Shown here: positions 1,298 to 59,616 of the stretch, piece after piece
How the letters are laid out: every line of letters starts with the position of its first letter
Numbering within the stretch: the first letter of the stretch is position 1
Virus record (IMG/VR): IMGVR_UViG_3300033463_000048
Span: 39,434 to 103,433 of that record
DNA from: a virus
Taxonomy: Duplodnaviria > Heunggongvirae > Uroviricota > Caudoviricetes
Length of the DNA stretch: 64,000 nt
Direction: 5' to 3' (one strand)
The notes under the pieces: model-generated
The model's input: only the letters and a program-made list of their open reading frames with translations
Database searches by the model: none
What the model was told of the DNA's origin: nothing
Made by a program: the position numbers and the translations under genes

Positions 1298-1336
1298 ATA
1301 ATAATTATACTATAATTTTGTAATTTTTTCAAGTTT
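1298..1336 (-). promoter_or_regulatory. conserved promoter-family member (minus orientation) upstream of dnaE-like gene
   Basis: Plus coordinates attata 1304-09 and tttcaa 1327-32; minus strand reads TTGAAA-17-TATAAT. Confidence 0.6.
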
Positions 1337-3095
1337 AAAAATCAAGAATACTGTCTGTAATTTCAAAGTTATCAACCATAATCTGCGCGCTTATCTTTCC
1401 GCACCATTCATTTAAGTTGGCGCGACCAATAAGTGTTATGGTCATTTTATCATATTTTTTAAACTCATCAATTCTTTTACATTTAAAGAACATATATGAC
1501 ACACCATTAACTGTAATTTTAACTGTATCATTTGTCTTACCCATAATTTGAATTGCAGATTTAGGAATATCTCTTAAAGTAACTTTAATAATTGGTTGGG
1601 GATTACCTTGTCCCCAAATATAATCGGTACTTCCAATTTCTTTAATAAGTTTTTCTATATCTTGATCAGTACCTTCTCTTTCAAAGTTAATATCATAGCA
1701 ACTTTCGGTAAAATTTAAATGTGAAAGTTCTTTATTAGCAAAATCGTGTAGGGCGCGAAGCTTTGAGTTTGGAATTGAAACTCCAAAAGCTTGATCGTGT
1801 CCTTCAGCATATTCCATTAATCCACTATTTAAAAGAAAACGTCTAAAGTCCTTTAACTCACTCTGACTTACTCCTCGCGCGCTACCGCGGATATAACCTT
1901 CATCATTAAGTCGTGCAACAATAGTTGGGCGCTTATGCTTGTCTGCAAGGCGCATTGCGATAAGTCCATTCAACTCTGAAGGAAATATATCTTCATCCTC
2001 AAGTCTAATAAAAAGAATTTGATTAGAAAGCAAATCATTTTTTGCAATCTTCATTTCCATTCTTTCACAAACATCGTCTCTAATCTTATTTTGATGGTCT
2101 CTATTATTACCACATTCACGTGCGGCTTCATTGGCAATTGTATCCATTTCACCTTTATGTCCTCGCTTTTCGCTAGGAATTAATTGATTACCATCCAAGA
2201 AAGCTTTAACCATCTTTTCTTTAGATGCTTGTGAACCAACTCTAATTGTAGCATTTACAAGAGGAACCAAATAAAATGCAACTGAAATTGGGTTTAGTTT
2301 ATCACAAATATCTTCAAAACTTGCACCAACCTTGCCACTAATTGAATAACCTTGTTTTTCAATTAAGGTTCTAAAAAATACGTTTTTGATATTTTCAGCC
2401 TTAAGACCAATTCTGATAATATATGCGTTCTCTGGTTCAACTACACTACCCATATCACCAATTATACCGAAGGCCGCGAGATCAATATAGTCAAATGCAT
2501 ATGATACATTCAAAAGTCTGTCTATATATCGACAAAATTGAAATACTACTCCAGCACCGGTAAGTTGCTTATTAGGATAATTCGGAGAGGTTTGATTATT
2601 AATAATAATTGCATTATCACTAAGCTGACTTCCATCAGAAAGTTCATGATGGTCAAGGACCAGGCAAGGAGCTACTTCCTTAAGTCGTTCGTGATAGATA
2701 TAATCATTAGTAGAACTATCGGGAAGAATAATTAAATCATATTCATCGTCACTATCTAAGATCTGCTGACAAATATCCTCAAGTCCGTGTTGTTTCCCGG
2801 AATGAATATATACGGTAATTATTTTTTCAGGATTTATTTTCTTAGTATATCCATAAGCAATTGCGGCTGAAGTAAATCCATCATTATCACTATCTACCAC
2901 CAAGGCAAAAGGTTTATTGCTGTTCACCTTACTTACATATAACTCCGCGCCTTCTTTAATATTTTTTAACTTACAGGGGTCTGATAGTTGATCGGGATAT
3001 GGATAAAGTACAGACCCTACATCCAACCCACGGGCGTGGAGTAAATTATTTAAGTAATCTGATTGAAAATTTTCATTTACTAACTTACACTTCAT
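1335..3095 (-). CDS. recJ: RecJ-like DHH-family ssDNA exonuclease
   Basis: DHH phosphoesterase motifs VVDSDNDGFTSAA and LVLDHH; GGH-like region; 586 aa. Confidence 0.65.
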   Translation of the reverse strand: MKCKLVNENFQSDYLNNLLHARGLDVGSVLYPYPDQLSDPCKLKNIKEGAELYVSKVNSNKPFALVVDSDNDGFTSAAIAYGYTKKINPEKIITVYIHSGKQHGLEDICQQILDSDDEYDLIILPDSSTNDYIYHERLKEVAPCLVLDHHELSDGSQLSDNAIIINNQTSPNYPNKQLTGAGVVFQFCRYIDRLLNVSYAFDYIDLAAFGIIGDMGSVVEPENAYIIRIGLKAENIKNVFFRTLIEKQGYSISGKVGASFEDICDKLNPISVAFYLVPLVNATIRVGSQASKEKMVKAFLDGNQLIPSEKRGHKGEMDTIANEAARECGNNRDHQNKIRDDVCERMEMKIAKNDLLSNQILFIRLEDEDIFPSELNGLIAMRLADKHKRPTIVARLNDEGYIRGSARGVSQSELKDFRRFLLNSGLMEYAEGHDQAFGVSIPNSKLRALHDFANKELSHLNFTESCYDINFEREGTDQDIEKLIKEIGSTDYIWGQGNPQPIIKVTLRDIPKSAIQIMGKTNDTVKITVNGVSYMFFKCKRIDEFKKYDKMTITLIGRANLNEWCGKISAQIMVDNFEITDSILDF

Positions 3096-4144
3096 TTAAT
3101 TTTTACCCTTTTCTCTAAAAGTTTTTCAAAAATTTCTTCTCCCTTGTCACAAGGAGAATCTTTAAGTTCGGTCAAACTATTCATATCATATATAAAACTC
3201 ATTTGACCATAGTTTTTATATTTATTACAAAACTCTTTTAACTTATTAAAATATTTTTCGCTTCTTCCAATTTCTTCATTATCATAACAGATAATAATTT
3301 CTCTTGGATGACAAGTTTTTACTAATAGTTTCATTTGAAACTTATTTAAGCTACTACCACATGTTGCAACTGCGCAGTTGGGACGAGAAAAACTATCTAA
3401 TTTAAGAACGCTTTTTTCACCCTCAAATAGAAGAGCATATCCTTCTCGTTTTATATTTTCTTTATTGATATTAAGTCCATATAAATTTAAACCAAGAGGA
3501 TGCGCATACCATTTGCCTTCTATACAAACTGGCATATATTTACCAAATTCTTTTGCTTCTTCTTCATTAAGTGCGCGACCACGGATTCCAACCAATTTAC
3601 CATTCACATCATAATGTGGAATAATAATCTTATTTCTACTAATAGAATAAGATATGTTAAACCTATCCATCGCTTCCTTTGTAATTCCCTCATTTAACCA
3701 TTCGGGCGCATAGAATTTAGTAAAACATTCTAATATACAAGGATCATAAGTTGTAAGTTCAGGAACATCTTCAAACTTATATTTATCACGCACACTATTA
3801 TATTTTTCAACTGCAAAGTCATTACCTAAACTATATTTACTACAATCTAAAATTACTTGATAGATATCTTGAAACCAATCATAATCAATATCGCGCGTTT
3901 CATAAAATCGCTTTAAGAAAGTAAAGATAGAAAAACTATCGGAACAATCTGTATAACAATGAAATATATGATTGTTTTTATAATAATATAATTTCCACGA
4001 TGCAGTTTCTATATTTGCATTATGACATACAGTAGGCATAATGAGGGCTTCATCTGTTTCTTTGAAAGGTATGCCCATTCTTTCTAATAATTTCTTTATA
4101 CTTTCAACGTCTAAGTTATCTGTAATTTCTTGATAATTAATCAT
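3092..4144 (-). CDS. dnaG: DNA primase (DnaG-like zinc-binding plus TOPRIM)
   Basis: Cys/His cluster CHNANIE...HCYTDC near the N-terminus; acidic TOPRIM-like motifs LLFEGEKS and CYDNEE; overlaps helicase gene in operon. Confidence 0.6.
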   Translation of the reverse strand: MINYQEITDNLDVESIKKLLERMGIPFKETDEALIMPTVCHNANIETASWKLYYYKNNHIFHCYTDCSDSFSIFTFLKRFYETRDIDYDWFQDIYQVILDCSKYSLGNDFAVEKYNSVRDKYKFEDVPELTTYDPCILECFTKFYAPEWLNEGITKEAMDRFNISYSISRNKIIIPHYDVNGKLVGIRGRALNEEEAKEFGKYMPVCIEGKWYAHPLGLNLYGLNINKENIKREGYALLFEGEKSVLKLDSFSRPNCAVATCGSSLNKFQMKLLVKTCHPREIIICYDNEEIGRSEKYFNKLKEFCNKYKNYGQMSFIYDMNSLTELKDSPCDKGEEIFEKLLEKRVKIK

Positions 4145-6253: not shown

Positions 6254-6277
6254 CTTTTTTTAAAGATTTTTATTTCT

Positions 6278-6343
6278 ATAATAATTATACACTAATTTTG
6301 CAAAAAAATCAAATTTAGGGTGCCGCACTCAGTACGGCACCCT
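6278..6343 (-). promoter_or_regulatory. terminator hairpin (agggtgccg...cggcaccct) immediately followed by conserved promoter (TTGATT-17-TATAAT) on minus strand
   Basis: Hairpin 6317-6343; plus coordinates aatcaa 6307-12, attata 6284-89. Confidence 0.65.
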
Positions 6344-8641: not shown

Positions 8642-8704
8642 TGTTTGTTTCTCCTAAACATTTTTAATATTGTAATTTTGTTATGAAAGTTCTTTCAACT
8701 TTCT

Positions 8705-8862
8705 AAATAAATTATACCAAAGTTTTTAGAAAAAATCAAATTTTAAATCTCAATTCTTATAAAATTTTTAAGGCTTTTCTAAACCGTGCAAATAGATTTA
8801 AAAATTTTTTCTTTCTTTCACTTTCTAACTATATTATACATAAATTTTGTATAATATTCAAA
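8705..8862 (-). promoter_or_regulatory. two tandem conserved promoters (minus orientation) upstream of 8386..8641 gene
   Basis: attata 8711-16 / aatcaa 8734-39 and attata 8833-38 / attcaa 8856-61 (plus coordinates); both 17-bp spacers. Confidence 0.55.
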
Positions 8863-8873
8863 TTTTATAAACG

Positions 8874-13109: not shown

Positions 13110-13125
13110 ACTCCTTCTATTTTAT

Positions 13126-13188
13126 ATATAAATTATACAATAATTTTGTTTAAAAATCAAATTTAGGCATCATTTATTGATGCCTAAA
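13126..13188 (-). promoter_or_regulatory. terminator hairpin (ttaggcatca...tgatgcctaa) followed by conserved promoter (minus orientation) upstream of gyrB-like gene
   Basis: attata 13132-37, aatcaa 13155-60, 17-bp spacer; hairpin 13163-13188. Confidence 0.65.
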
Positions 13189-13901
13189 GCTTTTTCAGTA
13201 TTTTCTTTAAATTTAATGTGTAATAATCCCGCAGATGGATCCCACGGTTTTGGATATATACAATGAACTATGGTTAATGGAATTTTTTCTACCTCACTTT
13301 GTCTATCAGTTAAACGAGAACAATTATAACAATGATTAATAAATTTTATTTTCCCCTTACAGATTGTATTAATAGCATCTTGGTCTGGGAATTTTAATTT
13401 TTTGGTTTGAAGTAAATTACATAATTTTAAATCAATATGATCTCTACGCATAGCACGCAAATTAAGAAGTAAAACACCACTATTTATATAATTTTCTTTT
13501 GTATGAATTCCAGTTTCTGCTTCTTTTACTCCACACATATAATTTTCTTCAAAATCAGTATTCCATAAATTTTTTATTTTATTATAAAAGAAAACGTCTA
13601 AATCAAGATAAAGTATTTTATCTTCAAGTAAAATTTGAGAAACATAACAACGAGTAAAAGACATATACGTCCAAGCATTATCTTTATTTGGTCCATCTTT
13701 TATATATTTTGGAAAATTATTTATATTAACTAATCTAACTCTTTTATCTAAAGGGTATGGAAATTCATCATCTTCTATAAAAAGATAAATACGATATACT
13801 TCTGGATTAGTTTTAACCAAATTATATATAATACCTGGCGCATATTCATATAAGTTTCTTGTAATGGAAAACATTACGGTTATATCATTATTACCATCCA
13901 T
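13170..13901 (-). CDS. family 8 glycosyltransferase (LgtC/galactosyl- or glucosyltransferase-like)
   Basis: DLDVFF (DxD), NSGVLLLNL and HCxxPKPW motifs typical of GT8. Confidence 0.7.
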   Translation of the reverse strand: MDGNNDITVMFSITRNLYEYAPGIIYNLVKTNPEVYRIYLFIEDDEFPYPLDKRVRLVNINNFPKYIKDGPNKDNAWTYMSFTRCYVSQILLEDKILYLDLDVFFYNKIKNLWNTDFEENYMCGVKEAETGIHTKENYINSGVLLLNLRAMRRDHIDLKLCNLLQTKKLKFPDQDAINTICKGKIKFINHCYNCSRLTDRQSEVEKIPLTIVHCIYPKPWDPSAGLLHIKFKENTEKALGINK

Positions 13902-14964
13902 ACATTTCTTTCTCCCGTTTAGTTTTCTTTGGCATATTTGTCCAAACTAACAAATCACGTGCTCTTGTGGCTGCTACATAACTTAAGCACTTTTCTTCAG
14001 TATTATACATACGCGCCCCAACCACAATTACGTTCTTTCGCTCTAAGCCTTTCGCGCTATGAATTGTGAGGATTTTAACTGTGTTGTCTTCCATTTTTTC
14101 TCGAAGTTGTTCTGTGGTTAATTCGTTTCTTTTAAGTATATCGTATGGAAGTCCAACATCTTTAAATTTTCGTGCCACTTCATCAATTTGCGCATTAGTA
14201 CGAGTAAGAACAAACCAATCACGATATTCGTCTGTACTCTTTCTAATTCCTTTTACAATTTTACTTAAGTCATAAGTCATATCATAAACTTTACCGATAT
14301 TATCTCGCGCGGGATAAGATGTGTCCATATAATCTAATCCGGCAAGATTGATAATACGTTTTGCAAAATTTAATATCGCGCGACTATTACGGAAATTTTT
14401 GGTTAGGTCGTAGGTTTTTATTTTGGGGTCTTTTGCTAAGTCAAGGAGTATGTCAGGTCGGCTACCGCGGAACGTATAAATACTTTGACGCCAATCGCCC
14501 ACCATCATCCATTTCTTTGGCTTAATATAGTCAAGGATAACCTTAAACTGCATATCTGTAGAATCTTGCGCCTCATCAAGAAATAGATAATCCACTTCTC
14601 TAATACAATGAAGATTCTTACTAATTAAGTTAAACAAATCATCAAACTTTTCTTCTGATATAATAAAAGAAGTATCAATTCCATTTGAAGTTAAAAGAGA
14701 ATTAACATAAGAATGGATAGTTCCTACAAACATTCCATCTTTATAATCTTCCCCAAGGCGTGCACGTAGAACTTCTGCGGCGTTATTTGTGAAAGTAAAA
14801 ACTACAATTCGCACGGGATTGGTATCTGGCATTTGAAGTACTTTTCTAACCTTTTCAGTTAAAGTTTCTGTTTTTCCACTTGCGGCTGTAGCATTTACTA
14901 CAATAAAATCTTCTGTTGAATTGATAACTGCTTGCTGTTCTTCTGTAAAATCTTTATATTCCAT
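13891..14964 (-). CDS. compact UvrD/PcrA-like SF1 helicase
   Basis: Motif I VVNATAASGKT, motif VI-like LTIHSAKGLERKNVIVVGA; 357 aa. Confidence 0.6.
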   Translation of the reverse strand: MEYKDFTEEQQAVINSTEDFIVVNATAASGKTETLTEKVRKVLQMPDTNPVRIVVFTFTNNAAEVLRARLGEDYKDGMFVGTIHSYVNSLLTSNGIDTSFIISEEKFDDLFNLISKNLHCIREVDYLFLDEAQDSTDMQFKVILDYIKPKKWMMVGDWRQSIYTFRGSRPDILLDLAKDPKIKTYDLTKNFRNSRAILNFAKRIINLAGLDYMDTSYPARDNIGKVYDMTYDLSKIVKGIRKSTDEYRDWFVLTRTNAQIDEVARKFKDVGLPYDILKRNELTTEQLREKMEDNTVKILTIHSAKGLERKNVIVVGARMYNTEEKCLSYVAATRARDLLVWTNMPKKTKREKEMYGW

Positions 14965-16052
14965 TAATTTTCCTCTTCTACTTGATATTCTATAAGTTTT
15001 CTTTTTTGAGAATTAGAATACCTAAAATATCTATTATGAGTATGCTTCTTTTTTCCATCGCAAACTTTTTTGATGTCATTATAAGAAAAACCCAATTCTT
15101 TTTCTGCTTGTGTGGAAGATTTATATTTTTTAATAATACTACCATTTTCATCTATTTCTTCTATTTCACAACATTGAGAAGATAAAAGATATTTTTCATA
15201 TCGTTCTTCAAAACTATCTATTCCATTAAGTCTAAACCAAATATACCCTCCAGCGGTAATTTGATTACCTAATGCTGCGGCTTTTATACTACTAACATCT
15301 ATTTTTAATTGTTTTGATGCTTCACCAGCACTTTTCCAATTCTTAACAAAATTACCCTCTAAGTCATATTGACAGAGTATTTTTGTTATTGTTTTATTAT
15401 TTTTAACATCTTCTATTATTTTATTTATATTTTGTTCATCTTTCTTATAAATCCATATATAACCACATCCATAATGATGTGAAGGAATAAGTTTAGGCAA
15501 ATCTAAACCAGTTTCTTTTTTTGCTTGAGCGTAATTTTCATATATTCCAATTAAGTCTCCATTAAAGGTATATTGTAGCACTGTTCGCGGTTGACAATAT
15601 AATTCCAAAGACTTAACTCTTTTTAGAATACAGCTACGAGATGCGCCTAAAAGATTAGCAACCACAGGAACAGATTTTAATTCTTTATATGCTTCTATAA
15701 TTTCTTCATCAGAGAATTTTTGATGACCGCTACCACCACTTGAGATATTATATCCTATTTCCTTATTTGTTGAATTATATAAATCAATATAATATATTTC
15801 TTTATCATTTAATTCTTCATTTTTTACTCTTTCTAGTATTTCTCTTTTAAAATTTTTTTTACCATATTTTTTAATAGCATTACATAAAGCAGGACAATCA
15901 TTATTTGGATTATTATAAGCCCAAAAAATATGTTGCTGCCATCTTATGGGTTCTGGTACAATAGTTTGACCTATATATATTTTATTATTAATTAAATTTG
16001 TAATTTTATAAATTACTCCCATATTATCCTCCAGACTTAATATTATATCCAT
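14964..16052 (-). CDS. GIY-YIG homing endonuclease
   Basis: GVIYKITNLINNKIYIGQT ... YNISSGG GIY-YIG core; C-terminal DNA-binding repeats. Confidence 0.8.
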   Translation of the reverse strand: MDIILSLEDNMGVIYKITNLINNKIYIGQTIVPEPIRWQQHIFWAYNNPNNDCPALCNAIKKYGKKNFKREILERVKNEELNDKEIYYIDLYNSTNKEIGYNISSGGSGHQKFSDEEIIEAYKELKSVPVVANLLGASRSCILKRVKSLELYCQPRTVLQYTFNGDLIGIYENYAQAKKETGLDLPKLIPSHHYGCGYIWIYKKDEQNINKIIEDVKNNKTITKILCQYDLEGNFVKNWKSAGEASKQLKIDVSSIKAAALGNQITAGGYIWFRLNGIDSFEERYEKYLLSSQCCEIEEIDENGSIIKKYKSSTQAEKELGFSYNDIKKVCDGKKKHTHNRYFRYSNSQKRKLIEYQVEEEN

Positions 16053-17070
16053 AGATATCTGATTTATAAAAATCTATATAAAATTTTTCTCTTTCACCTA
16101 GATTTTTATCTAATGGAACTTCTTCTAATATTGTAAAAGTAAAATTATCCCAATTACTAAATAATGCTTTATGGATATTTGTTCTACTTATTGTTCCAAT
16201 ATTAAGTGAGGTTTTTATGTGCTCAGTCCATCTTTTTGTGATTTCTGCTTTAGTTTTACCTATATAAATTTCTCCACTTTTTTCATTTTTAATCATATAT
16301 ATAACATTTTTGGGATCTTTATTTCCTAAAGTTCTTTTCAGCATATTTTTAAAAGGTTGTTGAATATATTCTGTCCATATTATTTTATAAATGGTTTCTT
16401 TATTATTAAAATGATTTAATATAGAAACCAAATAGTTTATATCTGCTTTTGCTTCATCGGATAAACAAACTCTATAGAAATCTTGATTTTCAGAAATTTC
16501 ACGTTGACGTAGAATTTCCTTATTTATAACTTCGCGTTTTTGACGATAGTCTTCAACTTCTGTTTTAAGAGAAGAAAGTTCGAGATTCGCCCTCTCGATT
16601 TCTTCTCTATGCTTTTCCAAGAACTCTTCTAATTCTTCGCTTGACTCAGATTTAAGTTGTGAGAGTATAGAATCAAGTTGAGATTTATAAGAAGTATAAT
16701 TGGAATTATAGTAGTTTTGAAGAGTAAGGTCAATATTGTCTTTTTTAATTTGGAGTTGATTTTGAAGTTGAGCTTCAATTTCTTGCGCGCTTTCACGCTT
16801 AGATTCCAAAGTTTTTTCAATGCCGCGCAGATTAGATTTAGCAACTTCAGCATTTGCAATGGCCACGTCTGCGAGATTTTTGGCTTGGGTAAGTCTTTCT
16901 TCCTCTTTCCGCTCCAAGGACGAAATTTCCCATAATCTATTTTTATAAGATTCTTCTAATTTTTTATTTAATTCTATATAACTATCTTTAGAAAGTTTAT
17001 TTACTTTCTTTTTAAAGTAAATTATATAAATTAATAAACCTATAATTAAAGTAATTAAAAAATAATACAT
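16024..17070 (-). CDS. membrane-anchored coiled-coil protein with C-terminal GIY-YIG nuclease domain
   Basis: N-terminal TM helix LITLIIGLLIYIIYF, long Glu/Lys/Leu-rich heptad region, C-terminal VIYMIKNEKSGEIYIGKT...YNIKSGG. Confidence 0.6.
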   Translation of the reverse strand: MYYFLITLIIGLLIYIIYFKKKVNKLSKDSYIELNKKLEESYKNRLWEISSLERKEEERLTQAKNLADVAIANAEVAKSNLRGIEKTLESKRESAQEIEAQLQNQLQIKKDNIDLTLQNYYNSNYTSYKSQLDSILSQLKSESSEELEEFLEKHREEIERANLELSSLKTEVEDYRQKREVINKEILRQREISENQDFYRVCLSDEAKADINYLVSILNHFNNKETIYKIIWTEYIQQPFKNMLKRTLGNKDPKNVIYMIKNEKSGEIYIGKTKAEITKRWTEHIKTSLNIGTISRTNIHKALFSNWDNFTFTILEEVPLDKNLGEREKFYIDFYKSDIYGYNIKSGG

Positions 17071-17078: not shown

Positions 17079-17125
17079 CCCTCCCTTATATAGTAATTAT
17101 ACCATAAATAAGAGAGGGTGTCAAA
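17079..17125 (-). promoter_or_regulatory. promoter (TTGACA-17-TATAAT, minus strand) whose -10 lies in the loop of an 10-bp hairpin
   Basis: ccctccctta 17079-88 / taagagaggg 17109-18; attata 17096-17101; tgtcaa 17119-24. Confidence 0.55.
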
Positions 17126-17129
17126 TTTT

Positions 17130-23599: not shown

Positions 23600-23625
23600 A
23601 GAAGGGACATTAGTCCCTTCTTTTT
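23600..23625 (+). terminator. rho-independent terminator
   Basis: gaagggac-atta-gtcccttc followed by ttttt. Confidence 0.8.
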
Positions 23626-23764
23626 ATATACTTTTTATATAAAATGCCCAATCCCTATATAAATCTTTGTTGAAACGTGATACGCATTTCCTCACACCAT
23701 TCGTGAGATTGCGCATCACGTTTTTTACTTTAGAATAGAACAGAGAAAAGGAGGAAAAATCTAA

Positions 23765-24727: not shown

Positions 24728-24781
24728 TAAATCGGTGCGCACGATTTATATATAATTTATTTTTTAGGAGGACATAAAGAA

Positions 24782-25772: not shown

Positions 25773-25809
25773 AGGGAGAGACTCTAAGTTTTAGAGTCTC
25801 TTCTTTTTT
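25773..25809 (+). terminator. rho-independent terminator
   Basis: gggagagactctaa-gtt-ttagagtctcttc followed by tttttt. Confidence 0.8.
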
Positions 25810-25854
25810 ATATATAAAGGCTTTAAAAAATTTACTTTATTTGAGAAAGAAGTC

Positions 25855-25895: not shown

Positions 25896-25928
25896 AATAG
25901 GGAAAGTTTAATTGGAGGAAAAGGATTT

Positions 25929-36836: not shown

Positions 36837-36859
36837 TTGAACAAACTCCTTCCCATTTT

Positions 36860-36898
36860 TCTTTTATTATACCATACTTTTTCAGAAAAAGCAAATTT
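36860..36898 (-). promoter_or_regulatory. conserved promoter-family member (minus orientation)
   Basis: Minus strand reads aagcaa(-35-like)-17 bp-tataat; plus-strand coordinates attata 36866-71, aagcaa 36889-94. Confidence 0.55.
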
Positions 36899-38387: not shown

Positions 38388-38417
38388 AAGGCTAGTCTAA
38401 GGACTAGCCTTTAAAAT
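38388..38417 (+). terminator. rho-independent terminator
   Basis: aaggctagtc-taag-gactagcctt followed by T-rich run. Confidence 0.7.
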
Positions 38418-38455
38418 TTGAAAATTTTATAAAATTTAGGTATAATTTATGTAGA
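38412..38455 (+). promoter_or_regulatory. conserved promoter-family member
   Basis: ttgaaa 38418-23, tataat 38441-46, spacer 17, then TTATGTAGAAAG. Confidence 0.65.
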
Positions 38456-38480
38456 AAGAGTAAAAGGAGAAAAAGTTTAA

Positions 38481-39144: not shown

Positions 39145-40010
39145 ATATAAATATTGATGATTTAAAAGCTTGTTTGGAAAAAGATTTACAAATTGTCTCA
39201 GAAGAAGAATTTGAATGGAGAGAAAAAGAAAAAAGGAGCCACGGAGATTTTTATACTCTTGAAGAAATTTGTGGAAAAGTTCAAGAGGGTATAGTTCCTT
39301 ATCAGATTCTTTGGTATATTTTGAGATATTACGTCTTAGATAAAAAAGAAATTTCAAAAATTGTTTCTACACTTGAAATTGATCGAGTGTTATTTGATAC
39401 AGATAAAGCGTATAATTCTTTTGGAGTAACTGGAAATTGTGAAGAAGTTAGTCATAGTGAAGAGATAACTTCCTCAAAACTAGTACATAATAGTTCTTAT
39501 GTAAGAGATAGTTATGATGTCGGCGCGTCGAAATATGTAAGTAATAGTTCATATATTTCTTCAAGTAAAAAGATAACTTATTCTACTCATATTTTTGACT
39601 CAAGTAATGTGGACCATTCGGCTTATATCTCAACTTCTTCAGGGGTAACTGATTGTCAGTACATTAAATTAGGAAATAATATTTCAAATAGTGTTTTTTG
39701 TCTTGGCTGTGACGATTTTGAAAATGGTTTATTCTGTGCCTTTATTAAAAATGAAAAAGATAAGTATTTTATCTTTAACAAAGAAGTTTCAAAAGAAAAT
39801 TTTGATAGGGCGCGAGACGATTTAATTGATATGTTTGGAAAGTTCTTTTATGTAGAACGCAATAAAGATGGCACCTATATTAAAGAGCGTGATATAAATG
39901 CCTTTAAAGAATATTGTTCTTCTATTGTTGGATATGATAAGGTAATATTTGATTATCTAATGAGAGAGATATTTGGTTTGTGGAAGCCAGTGGTGATGGG
40001 AAAATTTTGA
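39141..40010 (+). CDS. hypothetical protein with Ser/Asn-rich pentapeptide-like repeats
   Basis: Start MNINIDDL at 39141; repeats SNSSYISSSKKITYSTHIFDSSNV. Confidence 0.45.
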   Translation: MNINIDDLKACLEKDLQIVSEEEFEWREKEKRSHGDFYTLEEICGKVQEGIVPYQILWYILRYYVLDKKEISKIVSTLEIDRVLFDTDKAYNSFGVTGNCEEVSHSEEITSSKLVHNSSYVRDSYDVGASKYVSNSSYISSSKKITYSTHIFDSSNVDHSAYISTSSGVTDCQYIKLGNNISNSVFCLGCDDFENGLFCAFIKNEKDKYFIFNKEVSKENFDRARDDLIDMFGKFFYVERNKDGTYIKERDINAFKEYCSSIVGYDKVIFDYLMREIFGLWKPVVMGKF

Positions 40011-40164
40011 AATTTTCTAAAATTTAAATTATAATAAGTTTATAAAGAGTTCCGAGTGAAAGCCTAGCGCTTGGGGAGGAAAGCGGTATAAAGTCCTCAA
40101 CACCATAAATGTAGAAACCGGTTATACTGGGGCCGGCGGCGCGGAAAGTAGGAACTCTAATATC

Positions 40165-40236
40165 AGGGGTATAGCACAATGGTTAGTGCACCAGGCTTTG
40201 ACCCTGGGGATGCGGGTTCGATCCCCACTACCCTTG
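40165..40236 (+). tRNA. tRNA-Gln (anticodon TTG)
   Basis: Acceptor AGGGGTA/TACCCTT (one G-U), D-arm GCAC-AATGGTTA-GTGC, anticodon arm CCAGG-CTTTGAC-CCTGG, T-loop TTCGATC. Confidence 0.65.
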
Positions 40237-40266
40237 CTTAAGATTATTAAAAGGAGAAATAAAAAA

Positions 40267-42013: not shown

Positions 42014-43630
42014 ATGATAAATTATTTCGGCTATCTTGAAGTGGAACTTAATGATGAGGACTTTGCAACACTACAAGGAGGAAGCACACCTGAGTCTTTG
42101 GGAGAGTTAAAAGAGAACCAATATATTATTGCTAAAGACCGGTTTGGGAGAGTTGAATATTTTCAGTTTAAGAATAGTAAAGTAGAAAGAATTTTATATA
42201 CTGAATTAGGGAATGATTTTACAGGTAAAATTAAACCATTAAACGACCAACAAGTTTGCGCCTTTCATATGTTAAGAGATAAGGACGTTCCGGTGAAACT
42301 TATAACTGGTAAGTTTGGTACCGGTAAGGCGCAACCAATAGATACAGTAATCCCTACCCCAATGGGTATGAAGAGACTTGGGGATATAAAAGTTGGAGAT
42401 TATGTGTTCGCGCGTGATGGACGTAAAACGAAAGTTTTAGGTATATTTCCTCAAGGAGTTCTTACTAATTATAGAGTAGAACTTAGCGACGGGCGCGTTG
42501 TATTTTGTAATGATGAACATATTTGGACTTGCGTGGATAAAGATGGAAATTTTTTTGATACTACAATTAAAGAAATTATAAGTTCTTATATGTTATATGA
42601 GGGAGAATATTATAGAATCCCTTGGAACGAAGCAGTTAAATATGAAGCAGTTATAGACGAAAGGGATTTTTATAAGGAAGGACATTACATCTCTTGTGAA
42701 ATTCCTAAAGAATTTATGACCGCGCCGATTGATCAAAGAATGCGTCTTTTAGCTGGAATTATTGATTCTAAAGGACTTATCAAGGCACGCCGCTTATATT
42801 TAAGACTTAAGGACTTTAATCTTATTAGGGATATGTATTCTTTCTTAATGGGATTAGGAATTTACGCATATAATGATGATACTGTAATTGAAGATAACTT
42901 AACTGCGGAAATTCATTTATGTTTAAACGAAAAGCAAATAAGTGAAATTTCTCCTTATCTTTATATGTTTGAATTAGAGAGACAAATCGATCCCGAGGAG
43001 AAACCTGCACTAGAAATCACCGATATATATACTGTTGGTGAAGCAGAAATGGTATGTATTTTGGTTGATAATCCAGAGCATTTATATTTGACTAATGATT
43101 ATATTGTAACTCATAATACAATGGCAAATATTGTTGCCGCGCTGGAAGCGGTTCAAAAGGGTGAGTTTGAGAAGATTATATTTATTAGAAATAATGTACA
43201 AGTGGCTGGGACAGATCCCATTGGCGCACTTCCAGGAGACGAACATGATAAACTTCTTCCGTATTTAATGCCTTTTGCAGACCATTGCGGTGGTATAGAA
43301 GGTATTCAAAGATTAATAGAAGAAGAAAAACTTGAAGTAATTCCTCTTGCTTTTTTAAGAGGTCGTAGTATTAGAAATGCTATTCTTTATTCAATGGAAT
43401 CAGAAAATTTAACTAAAGAACATATTCAATTAATTTTAGGAAGAGTAGATAAGGGTTCTCAGTTATGGATGGATGGAGATATTAAGCAAAGAGATAAGGC
43501 TATATTTGAAAAGTCTCAAGGACTTGAAATTATGATTGAAAGACTGGCGGGGAATCCTTTATTTGGCTATGTAAATTTAGTTAAGTCAGAACGTTCACCA
43601 ATAGCCGCACTTAGCGATCTACTTGATTAA
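42014..43630 (+). CDS. phoH: PhoH-like ATPase interrupted by an intein
   Basis: The 105-aa N-extein ends GKFGTGK; the C-extein TMANIVAALEAVQKGEFEKIIFIRNN...LPGDEHDKLLPYLMPFADH is a PhoH core. Removing residues 106-368 restores the Walker A motif GTGKT. Confidence 0.8.
   Translation: MINYFGYLEVELNDEDFATLQGGSTPESLGELKENQYIIAKDRFGRVEYFQFKNSKVERILYTELGNDFTGKIKPLNDQQVCAFHMLRDKDVPVKLITGKFGTGKAQPIDTVIPTPMGMKRLGDIKVGDYVFARDGRKTKVLGIFPQGVLTNYRVELSDGRVVFCNDEHIWTCVDKDGNFFDTTIKEIISSYMLYEGEYYRIPWNEAVKYEAVIDERDFYKEGHYISCEIPKEFMTAPIDQRMRLLAGIIDSKGLIKARRLYLRLKDFNLIRDMYSFLMGLGIYAYNDDTVIEDNLTAEIHLCLNEKQISEISPYLYMFELERQIDPEEKPALEITDIYTVGEAEMVCILVDNPEHLYLTNDYIVTHNTMANIVAALEAVQKGEFEKIIFIRNNVQVAGTDPIGALPGDEHDKLLPYLMPFADHCGGIEGIQRLIEEEKLEVIPLAFLRGRSIRNAILYSMESENLTKEHIQLILGRVDKGSQLWMDGDIKQRDKAIFEKSQGLEIMIERLAGNPLFGYVNLVKSERSPIAALSDLLD
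42329..43117 (+). mobile_element. intein (263 aa) with LAGLIDADG homing-endonuclease domain; Ala1, C-terminal HN, +1 Thr
   Basis: Block A AQPIDTVI, block B NDEHIWT, LAGLIDADG-like MRLLAGIIDSKG, C-terminal YIVTHN followed by T. Confidence 0.75.
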
Positions 43631-44435
43631 GGTATTAAAAATGACAAATATTTATAAGATAACAAATATTGTTAATGGTAATATTTATATTGGAAAAACA
43701 ATTAACAATATTAATGACCGTTGGAAAGAACATATTTACTCTGCGATATCAAAAGATAAAGATGGTAATTGTCCTCTTCATTGTGCTATTAGAAAATATG
43801 GAAAAGAAAATTTTTTAATAGAATTAATTGATAGGTGCGAGGATTTTGATAGTTCAAATAAGGAAAAGTATTGGATAAAATACTATGATTCTTATAATAA
43901 TGGATATAATGCTACTTTGGGTGGGGATGGAAATCCATTATATGATAGAGAATATATCAAAAAATTATGGGACGATGGGCTGTCTAATAAAGAAATTAGA
44001 GAAATTATTGGTTGTGATAAGAAAGTAATAAGAAAGACTCTTTATTCTTATGGCATAACAAAAGAAGAGCTTTATAAAAGAAGAGGGAAGAATATAGAGA
44101 AAGATATAGATAAAGATTATTTAAAAGAGTTATGGGATGAAGAGCTAACTCTAACCCAAATTGCCGAAATTTTTAATGTTGAACAAAAAACTATTATGCG
44201 AAGATTAGAAAAAATTGGTATTGACTCTAATCAACGACATAATAGATATTATGATTCACTTTTAAAGGTTCATTGGTCTGTTATTTTAAATTTGTATAAA
44301 GAAGGAAAAACTATTTCAGAAATTCGAAAAATAACGGGCTGTGGATTTAATTCTATAGAAAAAACAATAATCAGGCATCGAGACTATTTAAAAGATAAAA
44401 ATGAAGTCAGGACTATGGCTGATTTGCTTGATTAA
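43623..44435 (+). CDS. GIY-YIG homing endonuclease
   Basis: NIYKITNIVNGNIYIGKT ... YNATLGGDG; repeated HTH-like modules. Confidence 0.8.
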   Translation: MIKVLKMTNIYKITNIVNGNIYIGKTINNINDRWKEHIYSAISKDKDGNCPLHCAIRKYGKENFLIELIDRCEDFDSSNKEKYWIKYYDSYNNGYNATLGGDGNPLYDREYIKKLWDDGLSNKEIREIIGCDKKVIRKTLYSYGITKEELYKRRGKNIEKDIDKDYLKELWDEELTLTQIAEIFNVEQKTIMRRLEKIGIDSNQRHNRYYDSLLKVHWSVILNLYKEGKTISEIRKITGCGFNSIEKTIIRHRDYLKDKNEVRTMADLLD

Positions 44436-44452: not shown

Positions 44453-46447
44453 ATGAGAGGATATACCTATTATAATCCAGGTGGTGCCGCCGGCATGAGG
44501 GATAGATATTATAGCGTAATTAATTTAAATGACCCATTTAATAAACCCAATCCTTATGGTATGGCTGCAATAAGAAATGCTAAGGATACTATAACAGAAT
44601 CTCGTGTTTCTATTGAACATTTGGCCGATTATCTTGATCAATTGGCTGCTAGGCTAGAAAATGATGAAGATAGATATATTCAAAAGAAGATAGCTCAGTT
44701 TGAAAAAGACCCTTATTTTAAAGGAGAAATTGAGGGAGAAACAAATGGCGTGGGAATGTTAAGAGCAATAAAAGATGCTCAAAAAAAGGGTAATTATTCT
44801 GATGCTTTTACTCTTTTGTTTAATGCCAGACAATCTCTTCAAACTTTAATGAATCAACGAAATGCATCTATAAGAACTTTTAAAAAAAATGCAAAAAATC
44901 TTCAAGGCATACAAAAAACAACCGAATGGCGCGAAAATGTAGACCTTGTAAAATTAATGAATGATGATAAACTTTTTGAAGAACTTGAAAATAGTTTTGA
45001 ACAAAGTTTTGATATTAATGATCCTAAACTGAGTCCAAAATTTACTAATGAATATTATATTGGTATAGCAGAAAAAATGGAAGAAGCAATCCGAAATGAG
45101 CAATTTCGAAGAGGAAATTATGCAAATTTAGATCCTGTCTTTAAAAGAAAAGGAGGAATAACAGACCAAATTAAAGACATATTTGCTCAAGCTGGACTTA
45201 TAAGAATGACAAATTCAGAAAGAGAATTATTGAAAGATATAAATCATAAAGAAAGTAACGCTGATAAACTTAGAGATTCAAAAATAAATGCTATTCTAAA
45301 AAAGGCAGTTTTGCAGAATACGGACATGAAGAAAAGAAATAAAAAACAGTCAACTCTTTTGAAAGAAATTTTGGATGTTATAAATTCTGGCGACCCTACT
45401 GAGTTATTTGGTTCTTTAAAATTACAAAAAGATATGGGAGTCATTGGAGTAGCGCTAACTGGTTCTCAAAGAGGAAAAAGAACTAACTGGTTAGGTGAAT
45501 CTTTTACAGTACAAAGAAGAGAAGACGTTGTTGCTTTTGATATTACTACTGATTATGATAAAGTTGTTGAAAAAGTAAGAGATTATTTTTATAATACTTA
45601 TGATTGGGCTACAATGTCTACTGAGCAAATGGAAAAATTAATTCAAGAAACCGCCCAAAAATGGGTAGAGGAAGGACGCGCCTTAGAAGATTTTTTTACT
45701 ATAAGAATAAATACTAAAGGTTATACTTCTAATCTTGATTTAGCTATTTTAAATAAAGGTACAAAATTAAAAGCGGCTGAAACCAATTTAATAAATCTTT
45801 CACAGAGTTTGAAGAGTGTTCAAGGTAACGTAGATAAGATAACTGGCTCTTCAGCAAGTAATTTTATAGGGAAGGCAAAAAGCATAGATAATCTTATTTT
45901 TTTGTTAGATAGCGCAATTCCTATTGGTATGTCTAGTGATATTTTATCTTCAATAGAAGATTGTATTGCTTCTATGTGTTGGATTTGGATGTGGGATGCC
46001 AATATGACAGATTTAGTTAATTTAGGAGATAATTCATCCAATTCAAATACTTTATATTTATTTCAATCTGGTGGTGCTTTGTTTAGTGGCTCTCAAATTA
46101 TTAAAGAGGCTTCAAAAGAAATAAAAGGCACGAGTATGGGTGGTATTATTAAAGTACATTTATCAATGACAAAAGATGTAAATAGAGAATATTATTTAAG
46201 TTTAAAAGAAAAGTTCCCTGTACCAGCAATTACAAAAGGAGAATCTTATACATATATAGATTCAAAAGGGCGAGAAAAAACTAGTAATAAGCATTATGGT
46301 AGCTATGAAGATCAACAAAAAGCATTGGAAAAACGTTGGGTTATGTTGAGAAATAAAGTTATAAATGATAGTACCTTACATATTGATTTTAATCAAAGGA
46401 TGATGGATAGTTTGCTTATGAAATTATCTGTTTTAAGAAATTTGTAA
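44453..46447 (+). CDS. large hypothetical protein (664 aa)
   Basis: No recognisable motif; coiled-coil-rich middle. Confidence 0.4.
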   Translation: MRGYTYYNPGGAAGMRDRYYSVINLNDPFNKPNPYGMAAIRNAKDTITESRVSIEHLADYLDQLAARLENDEDRYIQKKIAQFEKDPYFKGEIEGETNGVGMLRAIKDAQKKGNYSDAFTLLFNARQSLQTLMNQRNASIRTFKKNAKNLQGIQKTTEWRENVDLVKLMNDDKLFEELENSFEQSFDINDPKLSPKFTNEYYIGIAEKMEEAIRNEQFRRGNYANLDPVFKRKGGITDQIKDIFAQAGLIRMTNSERELLKDINHKESNADKLRDSKINAILKKAVLQNTDMKKRNKKQSTLLKEILDVINSGDPTELFGSLKLQKDMGVIGVALTGSQRGKRTNWLGESFTVQRREDVVAFDITTDYDKVVEKVRDYFYNTYDWATMSTEQMEKLIQETAQKWVEEGRALEDFFTIRINTKGYTSNLDLAILNKGTKLKAAETNLINLSQSLKSVQGNVDKITGSSASNFIGKAKSIDNLIFLLDSAIPIGMSSDILSSIEDCIASMCWIWMWDANMTDLVNLGDNSSNSNTLYLFQSGGALFSGSQIIKEASKEIKGTSMGGIIKVHLSMTKDVNREYYLSLKEKFPVPAITKGESYTYIDSKGREKTSNKHYGSYEDQQKALEKRWVMLRNKVINDSTLHIDFNQRMMDSLLMKLSVLRNL

Positions 46448-46500
46448 ATTTTTTAAAATTATAATATAATAAAAGAAAAAGAGAAAGAGAGTTTAAAGAA

Positions 46501-48308: not shown

Positions 48309-48554
48309 GTGGATATTGTCACAATATTATCAATTTTTGGATTAGTTTCTACTATAAGTGGGAATGTATTAATTAATTATAGAAGAAAAATTGGATTTTT
48401 GGTTTGGATTATTGGTAATATATTGTGGATTTTAGTTAATGTGTTTGGGACGTTTAATGTGTTTATGGTTATAATGTATGTACTTTATGCGGTACTTAAT
48501 GTTGATGGCTGGATTAAATGGAGTAAAATACAAAAAGGAAAGGCTTCTAAGTAG
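48309..48554 (+). CDS. small polytopic membrane protein (GTG start)
   Basis: Three hydrophobic segments; 81 aa. Confidence 0.4.
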   Translation: MDIVTILSIFGLVSTISGNVLINYRRKIGFLVWIIGNILWILVNVFGTFNVFMVIMYVLYAVLNVDGWIKWSKIQKGKASK

Positions 48555-48566
48555 AGGCCTTTTTAA
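48539..48566 (+). terminator. rho-independent terminator
   Basis: aaggcttctaagtagaggcc ttttt. Confidence 0.65.
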
Positions 48567-48606
48567 ATTTGAAAATTTTTTAAAATTATTATATAATTTA
48601 TATAGA
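48563..48606 (+). promoter_or_regulatory. conserved promoter-family member
   Basis: ttgaaa 48569-74, tataat 48592-97, spacer 17, then TTATATAGAAAA. Confidence 0.65.
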
Positions 48607-48628
48607 AAATAAAGAAAGGAATAAAAAA

Positions 48629-49545: not shown

Positions 49546-49594
49546 GTTTTTGTATAAAATATACAAAAAAAACGAAAAGTCGAGAAGTAAATTT

Positions 49595-49640
49595 TACTTT
49601 TTGACTTTTTTTTAAATTTTTGGTATAATATATATAGAAA
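49595..49640 (+). promoter_or_regulatory. sigma-A-type promoter (TTGACT-17-TATAAT), variant of conserved family
   Basis: ttgact 49601-06, tataat 49624-29, followed by ATATATAGAAAGAGTGAG. Confidence 0.65.
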
Positions 49641-49661
49641 GAGTGAGAAAGGAATAAAGAA

Positions 49662-57667: not shown

Positions 57668-57671
57668 GCTA

Positions 57672-57716
57672 TAAAAAATTTGAAAAAAATATAAAATTAT
57701 ATTATAATTAATATAG
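57672..57716 (+). promoter_or_regulatory. conserved promoter-family member
   Basis: ttgaaa 57680-85, tataat 57703-08, spacer 17, then TAATATAGAAAATAAG. Confidence 0.6.
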
Positions 57717-57738
57717 AAAATAAGAAAGGAGCTTAAAA

Positions 57739-57984
57739 ATGGAACATCTTATCCCTGAAGAATTTAACTCTAAAGAATTTAACTACAACATTGAACTTTG
57801 TATGGAAGTTGTAGAAAAATTCCATAGAATTCAGTTGATTGATAGCGATCTTGCTGCTGCAATTATTCCTACTCTAATCGATAATTATGCAGATGGACTT
57901 GGTATTGATGCAGTTGAATTTGCAAAAACTCTTGTCCCATTGATTGAAACCAATCACCGTGAAAACCCGGAATTATACAAATAA
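57739..57984 (+). CDS. hypothetical acidic protein
   Basis: 81 aa. Confidence 0.4.
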   Translation: MEHLIPEEFNSKEFNYNIELCMEVVEKFHRIQLIDSDLAAAIIPTLIDNYADGLGIDAVEFAKTLVPLIETNHRENPELYK

Positions 57985-58026
57985 AATTTGAAAAAGTTTT
58001 AAAATTATTGTATAATTTATTTAGAA
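57982..58026 (+). promoter_or_regulatory. conserved promoter-family member
   Basis: ttgaaa 57988-93, tataat 58011-16, spacer 17, then TTATTTAGAAAGTTGAGAGAG. Confidence 0.65.
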
Positions 58027-58061
58027 AGTTGAGAGAGAATTAAAAAGAAAGGAGAGTAAGA

Positions 58062-58475: not shown

Positions 58476-58487
58476 AGGAGAAATAGT

Positions 58488-58688: not shown

Positions 58689-58850
58689 AACCGTACCTGC
58701 ACTGATGCCCACTAGGAAAGCACGTCGCGCGAGAGCAAAGAACAATATGTATGATGTACCTCATTTGTTTAAGCGTACTTCAGCGCGCAATGCAAAGCGT
58801 CAGAGTTATTTCTCACTTCATTGGAGAGAGGCGGTAATGTTTGATGAGTG
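58678..58850 (+). CDS. small basic protein (MKTKTVPALMPTRKARRARAKNNMYD...)
   Basis: 57 codons, Arg/Lys-rich; below the ORF-track cutoff. Confidence 0.3.
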
Positions 58851-59161
58851 ATTTTGAGAACCAACTTCAAATTATTCTTTCAAAACATATTCTCGTTTTT
58901 ACACCCGACTATCACGTTGTAGTATATAGTTGGCGCGCCATGCAAGAATTAGCGGAATACTTCAAAACTTACCAAAGCGCGCACACAGATTTTCTATATA
59001 CCTCTATGGCGCAGTCTACTGCGCCTGGGGATTATGCTGGCGCGGATGCGTGGGGCGCATTTAGTTGGGTAGATAATGGTGAAATTAAAATGTTTGGATT
59101 AAATTTTATGCAGGAAGCGCAGGAAAATAGATTTAAGCAATTTAATTCCACTTCTAATTGA
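58841..59161 (+). CDS. hypothetical protein
   Basis: 106 aa; last ORF before long non-coding region. Confidence 0.4.
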   Translation: MMSDFENQLQIILSKHILVFTPDYHVVVYSWRAMQELAEYFKTYQSAHTDFLYTSMAQSTAPGDYAGADAWGAFSWVDNGEIKMFGLNFMQEAQENRFKQFNSTSN

Positions 59162-59303
59162 ACTCATTAGTTTACGGAAAACCGCGAACTAATGGGTTCG
59201 CGAGATAAGTTCAACTCTTATATGAGTTATTGGTTTGACTTTATTTGACTCCTTTCTTTAGTTGTACCTCTTTCTTACAGCGCGGACGAGAGTTCGCGCA
59301 CCT

Positions 59304-59381
59304 GGGGGTAAGAATGGTTTCGACTACGCTTAAACCCAAAGTGGACTGCGTAGGACGCGGGATCGTAACCCGCTACCTCCA
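59304..59381 (+). ncRNA. non-canonical tRNA-like element (candidate tRNA mimic/Y-RNA-like module)
   Basis: Acceptor-like GGGGGTA/TACCTCC plus discriminator A. T-arm GCGGG-ATCGTAA-CCCGC. Internal CTACGC-18 nt-GCGTAG stem instead of a canonical anticodon arm. Lies within an ORF-free GC-rich segment. Confidence 0.4.
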
Positions 59382-59571
59382 CTCAGGAAGACCATCCCAT
59401 CGCGGCGTATGATCTTCTACCGTTATCATGAATTTCGAGTACTTAAACTACCACCGGCACTCAACTTAGGCGTCCTTGAGATATGCGAGTCAGTGATATG
59501 TGGCATTTAGTGGGGAACGGTATATAAGAACGCAAAGTAAAGTACTCCTCTCTTTGAGAGAATTAAAATTT

Positions 59572-59616
59572 TAAAATTTGAAAAAGTTTTAAAATTTTGG
59601 TATAATTTTTATAGAA
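59572..59616 (+). promoter_or_regulatory. conserved promoter-family member
   Basis: ttgaaa 59578-83, tataat 59601-06, spacer 17, then TTTTATAGAAAGTTGAGAGAG. Confidence 0.65.

Follow-up and report, generated by a model that had tools for sequence, protein, structure and literature searches.

Probable host-sigma promoter cassettes, with adjoining terminator-like hairpins and 5' stem-loops, in a large uncultivated gut and rumen phage clade

The 64,000-nucleotide stretch of phage DNA analysed here (IMG/VR virus record IMGVR_UViG_3300033463_000048, positions 39,434 to 103,433; hereafter the window) carries in its intergenic gaps many copies of a promoter-like sequence. They raise the questions of whether a genuine promoter family is present, which RNA polymerase (RNAP) would read it, and why copies adjoin terminator-like hairpins on one side and conserved leader sequences on the other. 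A sequence-only reading had listed at least 13 sites with a common consensus, had noted an invariant spacing between the -35 and -10 elements, and had proposed a modular arrangement of terminator and promoter. The present analysis indicates that the copies are probably strong promoters for the primary sigma factor (sigma-A/sigma-70 type) of the host, organized as terminator-promoter-leader cassettes that drive pre-replicative genes. To that earlier account it adds the clade-wide extent of the family, its positional conservation, terminators in which the promoter is embedded, and a role for the conserved leader as a 5' hairpin on long leaders only.

The promoter family and its conservation

The tight family comprises 12 sites that share one architecture of about 45 bp. 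Sites were first aligned by a scan for TTGAnn-N17-TAnAAT, and a position weight matrix (PWM) was then built from the 12. An A/T-rich tract ending in AAAT precedes the -35 element, and the consensus reads AAAT-TTGA(a/t/c)n, a T-rich stretch, (T/C)AAAATT at about -22 to -17 within the spacer, three bases, usually a G, TATAAT, a 6-nt discriminator composed of A and T only, T(t/a)aT(a/t)T, and AGAAA(g). TTGA, a spacer of exactly 17 bp and TATAAT are each present in 12 of 12 copies, so that the invariant spacing noted earlier is borne out. The -35 hexamers resemble TTGACA (TTGAAA in seven copies, all of them on the plus strand, TTGATT in three, TTGACT and TTGAAT in one each), and TAGAAA lies at a fixed offset in 10 of 12. 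The predicted transcription start (+1) is the A of TAGAAA, 7 nt past the -10 element and with T at -1. Other details of the earlier description require correction. Because the spacer of its consensus lacks one base, that consensus as written has no exact match (allowing 1-3 Ns), and the closest fits carry 3-8 mismatches. The extended -10 TG that it ascribed to many copies is found in canonical form (T-15 G-14) in only 3 of 12, namely those whose -35 begins at 49601, 59578 and 8739, the conserved base being G at -13 (9/12); relatives of the phage mostly carry the canonical TGn.

The existence of the family is upheld by its scores. With the full PWM, members reach 44-70 bits, no other site in the window exceeding 21; with a leave-one-out PWM they reach 24-57 bits, versus a maximum of 11 in 30 first-order Markov simulations of the window. 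The same sites emerged from an unsupervised repeat finder, where they make up the largest dispersed families (D2-D5, D7, D8, D11). Exact runs shared between copies are 18-24 nt long, and over the 70 nt of positions 57970-58039 and 59560-59629 the copies 57988 and 59578 show 87% identity. Mechanically called open reading frames (ORFs) occupy 93% of the window; all 12 members fall within the remaining 7% or so, and all are co-oriented with the next gene or tRNA. A generic promoter scan, in which 98 sigma-70-like matches in the window compared with 92 in shuffles, was uninformative in such A/T-rich DNA.

Members are named here by the first T of the -35 element. On the plus strand, 38418 (38414-38458; AAAT-TTGAAA-17-TATAAT-TTATGT-AGAAAG; +1 at 38453; 54 bits leave-one-out) precedes an ORFan at 38481. 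The weakest tight member, 40007 (40003-40047; +1 at 40042; 24 bits), has TATAAA in place of TAGAAA, has its +1 at 123 nt before tRNA-Gln (40165-40237) and was absent from the earlier list. Member 48569 (48565-48609; +1 at 48604) precedes a 68-aa ORF at 48629, and 49601 (49597-49641; TTGACT and TGG-TATAAT; +1 at 49636) precedes a gene at 49662. Three further copies follow: 57680 (57676-57720; +1 at 57715) before an 81-aa ORFan at 57739, 57988 (57984-58028; +1 at 58023) with a AGAAAGTTGAGAGAGAA leader before a gene at 58062, and 59578 (59574-59618; +1 at 59613) before tRNA-Met (59656-59725) and a tRNA array. On the minus strand, 13160 (13120-13164; +1 at 13125) precedes the genes for the large and small subunits of topoisomerase II (topoL and topoS). 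A tandem pair follows, its upstream promoter being 8861 (8821-8865; +1 at 8826) and its downstream one 8739 (8699-8743; +1 at 8704), which has a 64-nt leader and precedes a gene at 8641, a 307-aa gene (p307) and a Sak4-like gene. Member 6312 (6272-6316; +1 at 6277) precedes the p182-DnaB-primase-RecJ operon, and 1332 (1292-1336; +1 at 1297) lies directly after the RecJ stop codon, before a gene at 1270 that runs off the window.

The window is part of a large uncultivated phage from a populous clade, as judged from at least 59 IMG/VR loci whose topoisomerase is 42-76% identical (rumen and gut metagenomes, contigs of up to about 180 kb) and from the lack of close relatives among deposited phages. 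When 14 kb of the window was compared by megablast with 50,697 deposited phage records, no nucleotide-level match was obtained, and the best topoisomerase identity to deposited phages is 33%. Relatives in the clade are rumen and gut phage contigs of 110-190 kb. The genome is 66% A+T, and the window (31-41% G+C, four strand blocks) encodes a two-subunit topoisomerase II, DnaB, primase, a RecJ-like nuclease, a Sak4-like annealing protein, RNase H, ligase, several GIY-YIG homing endonucleases, tail and lysis proteins, 16 tRNA genes and many ORFans.

Eight syntenic relatives, with proteins 35-70% identical, were compared with positions 1-18 kb of the window. Their PWM matches of 15-49 bits fall at the equivalent intergenic positions and in the same orientation. 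The promoter after topoS, before the unit of small gene, p307 and Sak4, is present in 8/8 relatives and that before p182-DnaB-primase-RecJ in 6/8, and the one before topoL either precedes it directly or has one extra small ORF between. Across 977 kb of relatives, TTGA-N19-TATAAT occurs 217 times, versus 14 and 18 times for the 16- and 18-bp spacers, with about 15 expected by composition, and there are 92 unique PWM matches above 20 bits versus 0 in shuffles. Taken together, the spacing counts, the conservation of position and the conservation of stems in relatives (described below) argue that the promoter sites are selected, functional elements.

Upstream hairpins and transcript leaders

Four window copies (38418, 48569, 13160 and 6312) are directly abutted by a GC-rich hairpin whose T-run merges into the AAAT and -35 element. 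These are the four hairpins that had been named earlier, and all are present, with folding free energies (dG) of -12 to -22: at 38388-38411 on the plus strand (dG -18 to -20.6), at 48539-48563 on the plus strand (dG -13 to -16), at 13162-13188 on the minus strand, where the following AAATTTGATTTTT doubles as the U-tract, and at 6317-6343 on the minus strand, a strong example. A terminator-scan rule also flags 6343-6317 and 13188-13162. A fifth copy, 49601, is of an embedded type: an A/T-rich hairpin (49579-49615, plus strand; dG -16.3) holds the -35 element TTGACT in its 3' arm and is followed by a T8 spacer that serves as the U-tract. Hairpins thus accompany 5 of the 12 window copies, and most copies are without one.

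Global minimum free energy (MFE) of 83-nt A/T-rich stretches proved too noisy for classing hairpins, and a best-single-hairpin search with a shuffle control was used instead. By this measure, 39 of 105 promoters across the clade have a hairpin of dG <= -9, versus 1 of 60 shuffles; 14 of these hairpins end within 12 nt upstream of TTGA and 16 hold the -35 element in the 3' arm. Clear embedded variants, with the -35 element in the stem or in the loop, occur upstream of the topoisomerase gene in relatives. At the p182 site, judged by per-sequence folds and shuffles, the terminator-promoter composite has its hairpin in 19 of 20 distinct relatives that possess the promoter. The stems there all differ in sequence (mean dG -17.7, mean z -5.6), and 1-11 nt separate the end of the hairpin from TTGA (n=19). 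The adjoining hairpins thus covary, pairing being kept with unrelated stem sequences. RNAalifold returned no structure on a MAFFT alignment of the orthologous terminator region, which is not evidence against the hairpins, since MAFFT did not register stems of unrelated sequence. Geometry, placement, orthologous conservation and hairpin covariation all agree with the terminator-promoter cassette proposed earlier, which is accordingly favoured here as the probable arrangement.

Downstream of the predicted +1, start codons follow at 24-64 nt, or tRNAs follow. Short leaders of 24-39 nt, which precede protein-coding targets, are purine-rich and C-free and contain a strong Shine-Dalgarno (SD) sequence. 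The long or non-coding leaders of the window are those of 8739 (64 nt) and 59578 (tRNA-Met). In both, base pairing between AGAAAGTT and an AACTTTC-like segment farther downstream gives a hairpin that starts at +2 or +3, and the conserved TAGAAAG leader can be assigned on this basis as an arm of a 5' stem-loop. At 8739 the stem-loop is GAAAGTT-GAAAG-AACTTTC (8685-8703, minus strand; +2 to +20); at 59578 it is the 5'-terminal stem-loop of the predicted tRNA precursor, AAAGTTGAGA...TCTCACTTT (59615-59639, plus strand; +3 to +27; dG -7.7). The TAGAAAG(TTGAGAGAG) leader described earlier is therefore the 5' arm plus loop of a predicted 5'-terminal stem-loop, which occurs on long leaders only.

The window and its relatives together yielded 103 distinct predicted leaders. 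Of these, 23 of 39 long ones versus 0 of 64 short ones have a 5' hairpin (dG <= -4, beginning no more than 6 nt from the predicted +1). Mean MFE of positions +1 to +32 is -4.7 kcal/mol, versus -1.1 in shuffles, and the leader after topoS keeps its 5' stem-loop in orthologous leaders of different sequence. That so many independent sequences have a 5' hairpin at a fixed place relative to the predicted +1 lends indirect support to that start site. In short leaders, the conserved transcript start would run directly into the purine-rich SD sequence; in long or non-coding leaders, AGAAAG(TT) would be the 5' arm of a stem-loop beginning 1-5 nt from the 5' end, which, by analogy with Bacillus subtilis, would shield the RNA from 5'-end-dependent decay.

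Polymerase, target genes and alternative explanations

The extended pattern TTGA-N9-AAAATT-N4-TATAAT-N3-T-N-TAGAAA has matches in more than 120 contigs from binned bacterial genomes, nearly all belonging to gut or rumen Bacillota. Many matching contigs are 140-184 kb long with several matches and are presumably phage genomes; at least one match is a host promoter, its predicted +1 lying 10 nt before a flavin mononucleotide (FMN) riboswitch. The metagenome-assembled genomes (MAGs) with matches are overwhelmingly Bacillota, and the SD sequences are AAGGAG-like, so a Gram-positive (Bacillota) host is likely. Matches in six MAG contigs (L197, L198, L254, L272, L276 and L291) were considered as promoters of a known host RNA, an idea that was rejected, since the RT-14 RNA found by Rfam in L272 is 4 kb from the promoter match. 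That RNA, a reverse-transcriptase-associated non-coding RNA, lies at 1688-1842 of L272, a Bacilli MAG contig, scores 96 bits and has no bearing on the promoter family.

The scanned proteins of the window, which is part of the genome, included no sigma factor, RNAP or obvious transcription regulator. This result, the primary-sigma geometry of the sites and the matches in binned contigs and before the riboswitch are the grounds for assigning the family, with considerable confidence, to host primary-sigma polymerase. The polymerase would read near-optimal stacked elements as promoters of maximal strength, and would start at T(-1)A(+1), followed by the purine run AGAAA(G). About one third of copies (window and clade) are fused to an intrinsic-terminator-like hairpin, for which the T-rich spacer would serve as U-tract; because the hairpin abuts or contains the -35 element, each such intergenic gap would close one transcription unit and open the next. 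The polymerase used, the start site, the timing of expression, the efficiency of the terminators and the stabilization of the RNA are all matters that we infer from these arrangements.

The genes served are ORFans without Pfam hits and those for topoisomerase II, the Sak4-like protein, DnaB, primase and RecJ, as well as tRNAs. The virion (tail/lysis) module at 17.7-32.5 kb has no tight member and one looser sigma-A-type site only, at 25860. Replication, recombination, ORFan and tRNA targets, together with the lack of a tight member in the tail/lysis block, fit an early or pre-replicative class of genes.

About four to five looser sigma-A-type promoters are also present in the window. Most of the sites in the earlier list are tight members, but those before 17070, 36836 and 25929 lack the AAAATT and TAGAAAG blocks; they qualify as good promoters of sigma-A type, having TGn and a 17-bp spacer, and score 14-21 bits. 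The first (17084-17128, minus strand; 18.5 bits) is a consensus promoter, TTGACA-17-TGG-TATAAT, before helicase and homing-endonuclease genes at 17070. The second (36854-36898, minus strand; 14 bits; TTGCTT-17-TGG-TATAAT) serves the RNase H to ligase operon at 36836. The third (25856-25900, plus strand; TTGACT-17-TGG-TATAAT) has its -35 element in a hairpin loop and precedes a 947-aa gene at 25929. A promoter at 46438-46482 (plus strand; 21 bits; repeat family I5; TTGTAA-17-TATAAT-AAAAGAAAAAG) precedes a phosphoesterase gene at 46501, and the sites 36894 and 46442 form a sub-type sharing TATAAT-AAAAGAAAAA. A weaker family-like copy, 34529, likewise absent from the earlier list, lies at 34489-34533 on the minus strand (AAAT-TTGAAA-17-TATAAT-TATTTT-ATAAAT; 13 bits; D5, 78%), before a GIY-YIG homing-endonuclease gene. 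An inverted repeat, CCCTCTCTTAT...ATAAGGGAGGG, spans the 17084-17128 promoter and covers its -10 element and the SD sequence of the gene that follows; it might serve as an operator or, in transcripts reading through, form a hairpin that sequesters the SD sequence. The virion module also has TATATA(A/T)A-type boxes after terminator hairpins or before SD sequences (about 23625-23650, 24748-24760 and 25806-25818, plus strand), which may be a separate, candidate class of late promoters.

Several observations weigh against assignment to the host polymerase or against parts of the cassette. The 64-kb window is only part of the genome, and a phage-encoded sigma factor or RNAP elsewhere is possible. 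The AAAT, AAAATT, discriminator and AGAAAG blocks exceed the conservation that sigma contacts alone require, and a phage factor could read the additional blocks. The canonical TGn, usual in relatives and in Gram-positive promoters, is here mostly replaced by G-13. The T-runs of the hairpins are interrupted (TTTAAAAT, TTTTTAAAT and AAATTTGATTTTT), which leaves the efficiency of termination uncertain.

Among other explanations, one that is compatible with promoter function holds that the cassettes of about 70-90 bp serve chiefly as patches of homology for the gain, loss or swapping of genes, in the manner of the promoter early stem-loops (PeSLs) of T4-type phages. This is a possibility to be entertained only tentatively. 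The precedent exists (PMC2839356, PMC4122927), identity between copies reaches 87% over 70 nt, units of a single ORFan have a copy on either side (57680, ORFan 57739-57984, 57988), and relatives have extra small ORFs or inserts of homing-endonuclease size beside promoters, between promoter and topoL or between topoL and topoS. Many copies, however, stand at stable, conserved operon boundaries and not in plastic regions. The closest relative, at 75% protein identity, is too distant to show cassette-bounded insertions or deletions, as are the relatives on the ORFan side, reached through a DUF2828/DUF7788 protein and at most 47% identical. A bolder combination, rather doubtful at present, would make the unit of about 90 bp a Gram-positive-phage counterpart of PeSLs that mediates gene shuffling, with the discriminator and AGAAAG as a class mark for shut-off. 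If true, a self-insulating, clade-wide expression cassette would shuffle genes through its near-identical copies among a very large, uncultivated family of gut and rumen phages of 110-190 kb, and a phage factor would time shut-off by reading the invariant discriminator and AGAAAG, much as has been suggested for the early promoters of T5.

A second explanation adds a layer to the reading of the sites as host-type promoters: bacterial RNAP would be used, with AAAT, AAAATT, the T.AT.T discriminator and AGAAAG providing a handle for a phage RNAP-binding protein, activator or repressor. Models for such marks are the T5 early discriminator with gpT5.026 and the T4 middle promoters with MotA/AsiA. 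Two sub-types do coexist in the window (12 T.AT.T-AGAAA sites versus about four with other discriminators, at 17124, 25860, 36894 and 46442). In T5 it is chiefly the discriminator that distinguishes early from late promoters, and contact with it is affected by a phage RNAP-binding protein (PMC7472727), and the genes served here, for replication and tRNAs, are 'middle' genes in T4 (PMC2988021). Nevertheless, the -35 element is canonical and at the canonical distance, unlike that of MotA-type promoters, and no candidate regulator was found among the scanned window proteins. The blocks, moreover, recur across a very broad range of contigs and mark at least one host promoter, that of the FMN riboswitch, and so generic promoter strength fits better than a phage-specific operator. 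Dependence on a phage factor is on balance unlikely.

It is highly improbable that the sites are promoters for a phage single-subunit RNAP of the T7/SP6 type, with TATAAT-N5-TATAGAAAG as the recognition sequence. The SP6 promoter contains ...CACTATAGAAG, and the contiguous conserved block of the window copies, from -12 to +6, ends in TATAGAAAG. An invariant TTGA 17 bp upstream and clade-wide spacing specificity are foreign to such promoters, TGn-TATAAT is common in relatives, no RNAP gene was found among the scanned window ORFs, and in at least one case the pattern stands before a host riboswitch. Finally, non-functional dispersed repeats or chance matches, which a 66% A+T genome and the 98 versus 92 matches of the generic scan might suggest, are effectively refuted by leave-one-out scores far above the simulated maximum, by strictly intergenic, co-oriented placement and by positions conserved across relatives with 35-70% protein identity.

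If the host-polymerase reading is correct, the family would supply a transcription-unit map (starts, stops and probably pre-replicative genes) for a widespread, uncharacterized clade of large gut and rumen phages, as well as a compact set of probably very strong, self-insulated promoter and 5' untranslated region parts of Gram-positive type. The split between short leaders and those with a 5' hairpin offers a clean prediction on RNA stabilization. Knowledge of how phages take over host transcription is left unchanged by this promoter family.

Neighbouring features and comparison with known systems

Other features of the region deserve mention. SD spacing and alignment with relatives make the ATG at 6241 a likelier start of p182 than the mechanically called 6253 (minus strand), and the topoisomerase large subunit may start at 13100 and not 13109 (minus strand). 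Inserts of about 1 kb lie between the two topoisomerase subunit genes in relatives. The helicase gene (13891-17070, minus strand) is interrupted by or fused with GIY-YIG homing-endonuclease ORFs, and further homing-endonuclease genes occupy 33596-34420 (minus strand) and 43623-44435 (plus strand).

The region of the tRNA genes (all plus strand) includes a tRNA-like gene at 59161-59229, which directly follows the stop codon of the 58841-59161 ORF and to which ARAGORN assigns a four-base anticodon (aatg); its Rfam tRNA score is 35.6 bits. An 81-nt RNA at 59304-59384 matches only the tRNA-like domain (acceptor stem and T-arm) of transfer-messenger RNA (tmRNA), with 14 nt replacing 308 model positions (mRNA-like region and pseudoknots), and scores 42 bits versus a gathering score of 47. 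It may be a phage 'mini-tmRNA' or a decayed gene; a relative (L184) has a full-length tmRNA of 111.8 bits. The 350-nt gap between tRNA-Met and tRNA-Thr (59726-60072) has at least four C(A/T)GCAA(A/T)(C/T)TT(A/T)AAA-like copies with short hairpins between them and no Rfam match; the copies could be processing signals or remnants of tRNAs. Within the tRNA/tmRNA-like cluster, 60176-61765 encodes a 529-aa protein with DUF2828 and DUF7788 (PHROG 850, labelled 'RNA-binding protein'), of a family very widespread in large viral contigs (378 loci, identity at most 47%).

Promoters of this kind are already known from phages such as T4 and T5. The closest structural parallel is provided by PeSLs, in which a strong sigma-70-like promoter with an A/T-rich tract has a stem-loop terminator upstream of it, overlapping it or inside it. 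They often stand in front of ORFans, and recombination between PeSLs has been demonstrated (Arbiol, Comeau & Krisch 2010, PMC2839356; Comeau et al. 2014, PMC4122927). The window cassettes are likewise intergenic composites of about 70-100 bp, with an A/T-rich tract, -35 and -10 elements, in some copies a stem-loop, an SD sequence and a start codon. Their stem-loops lie upstream of or overlap the -35 element (both sub-types occur in the window), and there are many copies per genome, before ORFans. PeSLs, however, were described in T4-type (Straboviridae) myoviruses, whereas the window phage is not T4-like (no megablast match; topoisomerase <=33%) and has Gram-positive-type signals. Its stems are not of the G-tract/C-tract kind, and many copies mark conserved replication-operon boundaries. 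Strict membership among PeSLs is not claimed, because the phage is not T4-like, most copies have no stem-loop, and any recombination between its copies would be hypothetical.

T4 early promoters have been characterized as 'uber' UP/-35/TGn/-10 promoters with extra consensus regions (Hinton 2010, PMC2988021). The window family resembles them in being phage-wide, in combining near-perfect host elements with extra conserved positions outside the sigma contacts, and in being presumed to out-compete host promoters right after infection. It differs in its -35 element (TTGA(A/C/T)n versus GTTTAC in T4), in having the canonical TGn in 3/12 copies only, and in the AGAAAG start and AAAATT spacer block, which are specific to the window's clade. 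Blastn of a window copy found annotated or predicted T4-type early promoters at about 81% identity over about 43 nt, with marginal E-values.

In T5, genes of every class are transcribed by host sigma-70 RNAP, and the early promoters have in common a discriminator motif open to possible use by a phage RNAP-binding protein (PMC7472727). The window promoters are like the T5 early ones (PN25 type) in their host sigma-70-type elements, A/T-rich spacer end, class-specific A/T discriminator (ATATT in T5; PMC7472727) and purine-rich transcribed region. A promoter of the T5-like phage Shivani (KP143763, 73068-73104), AATTATTGTATAAT-ATATAC-ATAAATTTGAGAGAGAA, is 86% identical over 37 nt (E = 5e-3) to the window sequence AATTATTGTATAAT-TTATTT-AGAAAGTTGAGAGAGAA. 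This similarity is short and statistically marginal, the T5 host is Gram-negative, and the TTGAGAGAG stretch belongs, in the window's clade, to the 5' stem-loop on long leaders. The resemblance to both T5-like and T4-type promoters is most likely convergence on the same polymerase constraints and not homology.

For the leaders, the closest comparison is with B. subtilis, in which, as far as the references listed in PMC3997798 indicate (109, 179 and 180), mRNAs are stabilized by 5' stem-loops and by ribosome binding. The stabilizers named there include the aprE leader stem-loop, the polypurine, SD-like stabilizer of phage SP82 early RNA and ribosome protection of hbs. Set beside these entries, both leader types of the window's clade have an apparent counterpart: computationally, the long leaders carry a stem-loop within about 5 nt of the predicted 5' end, and the short leaders are polypurine with a strong SD sequence near that end.

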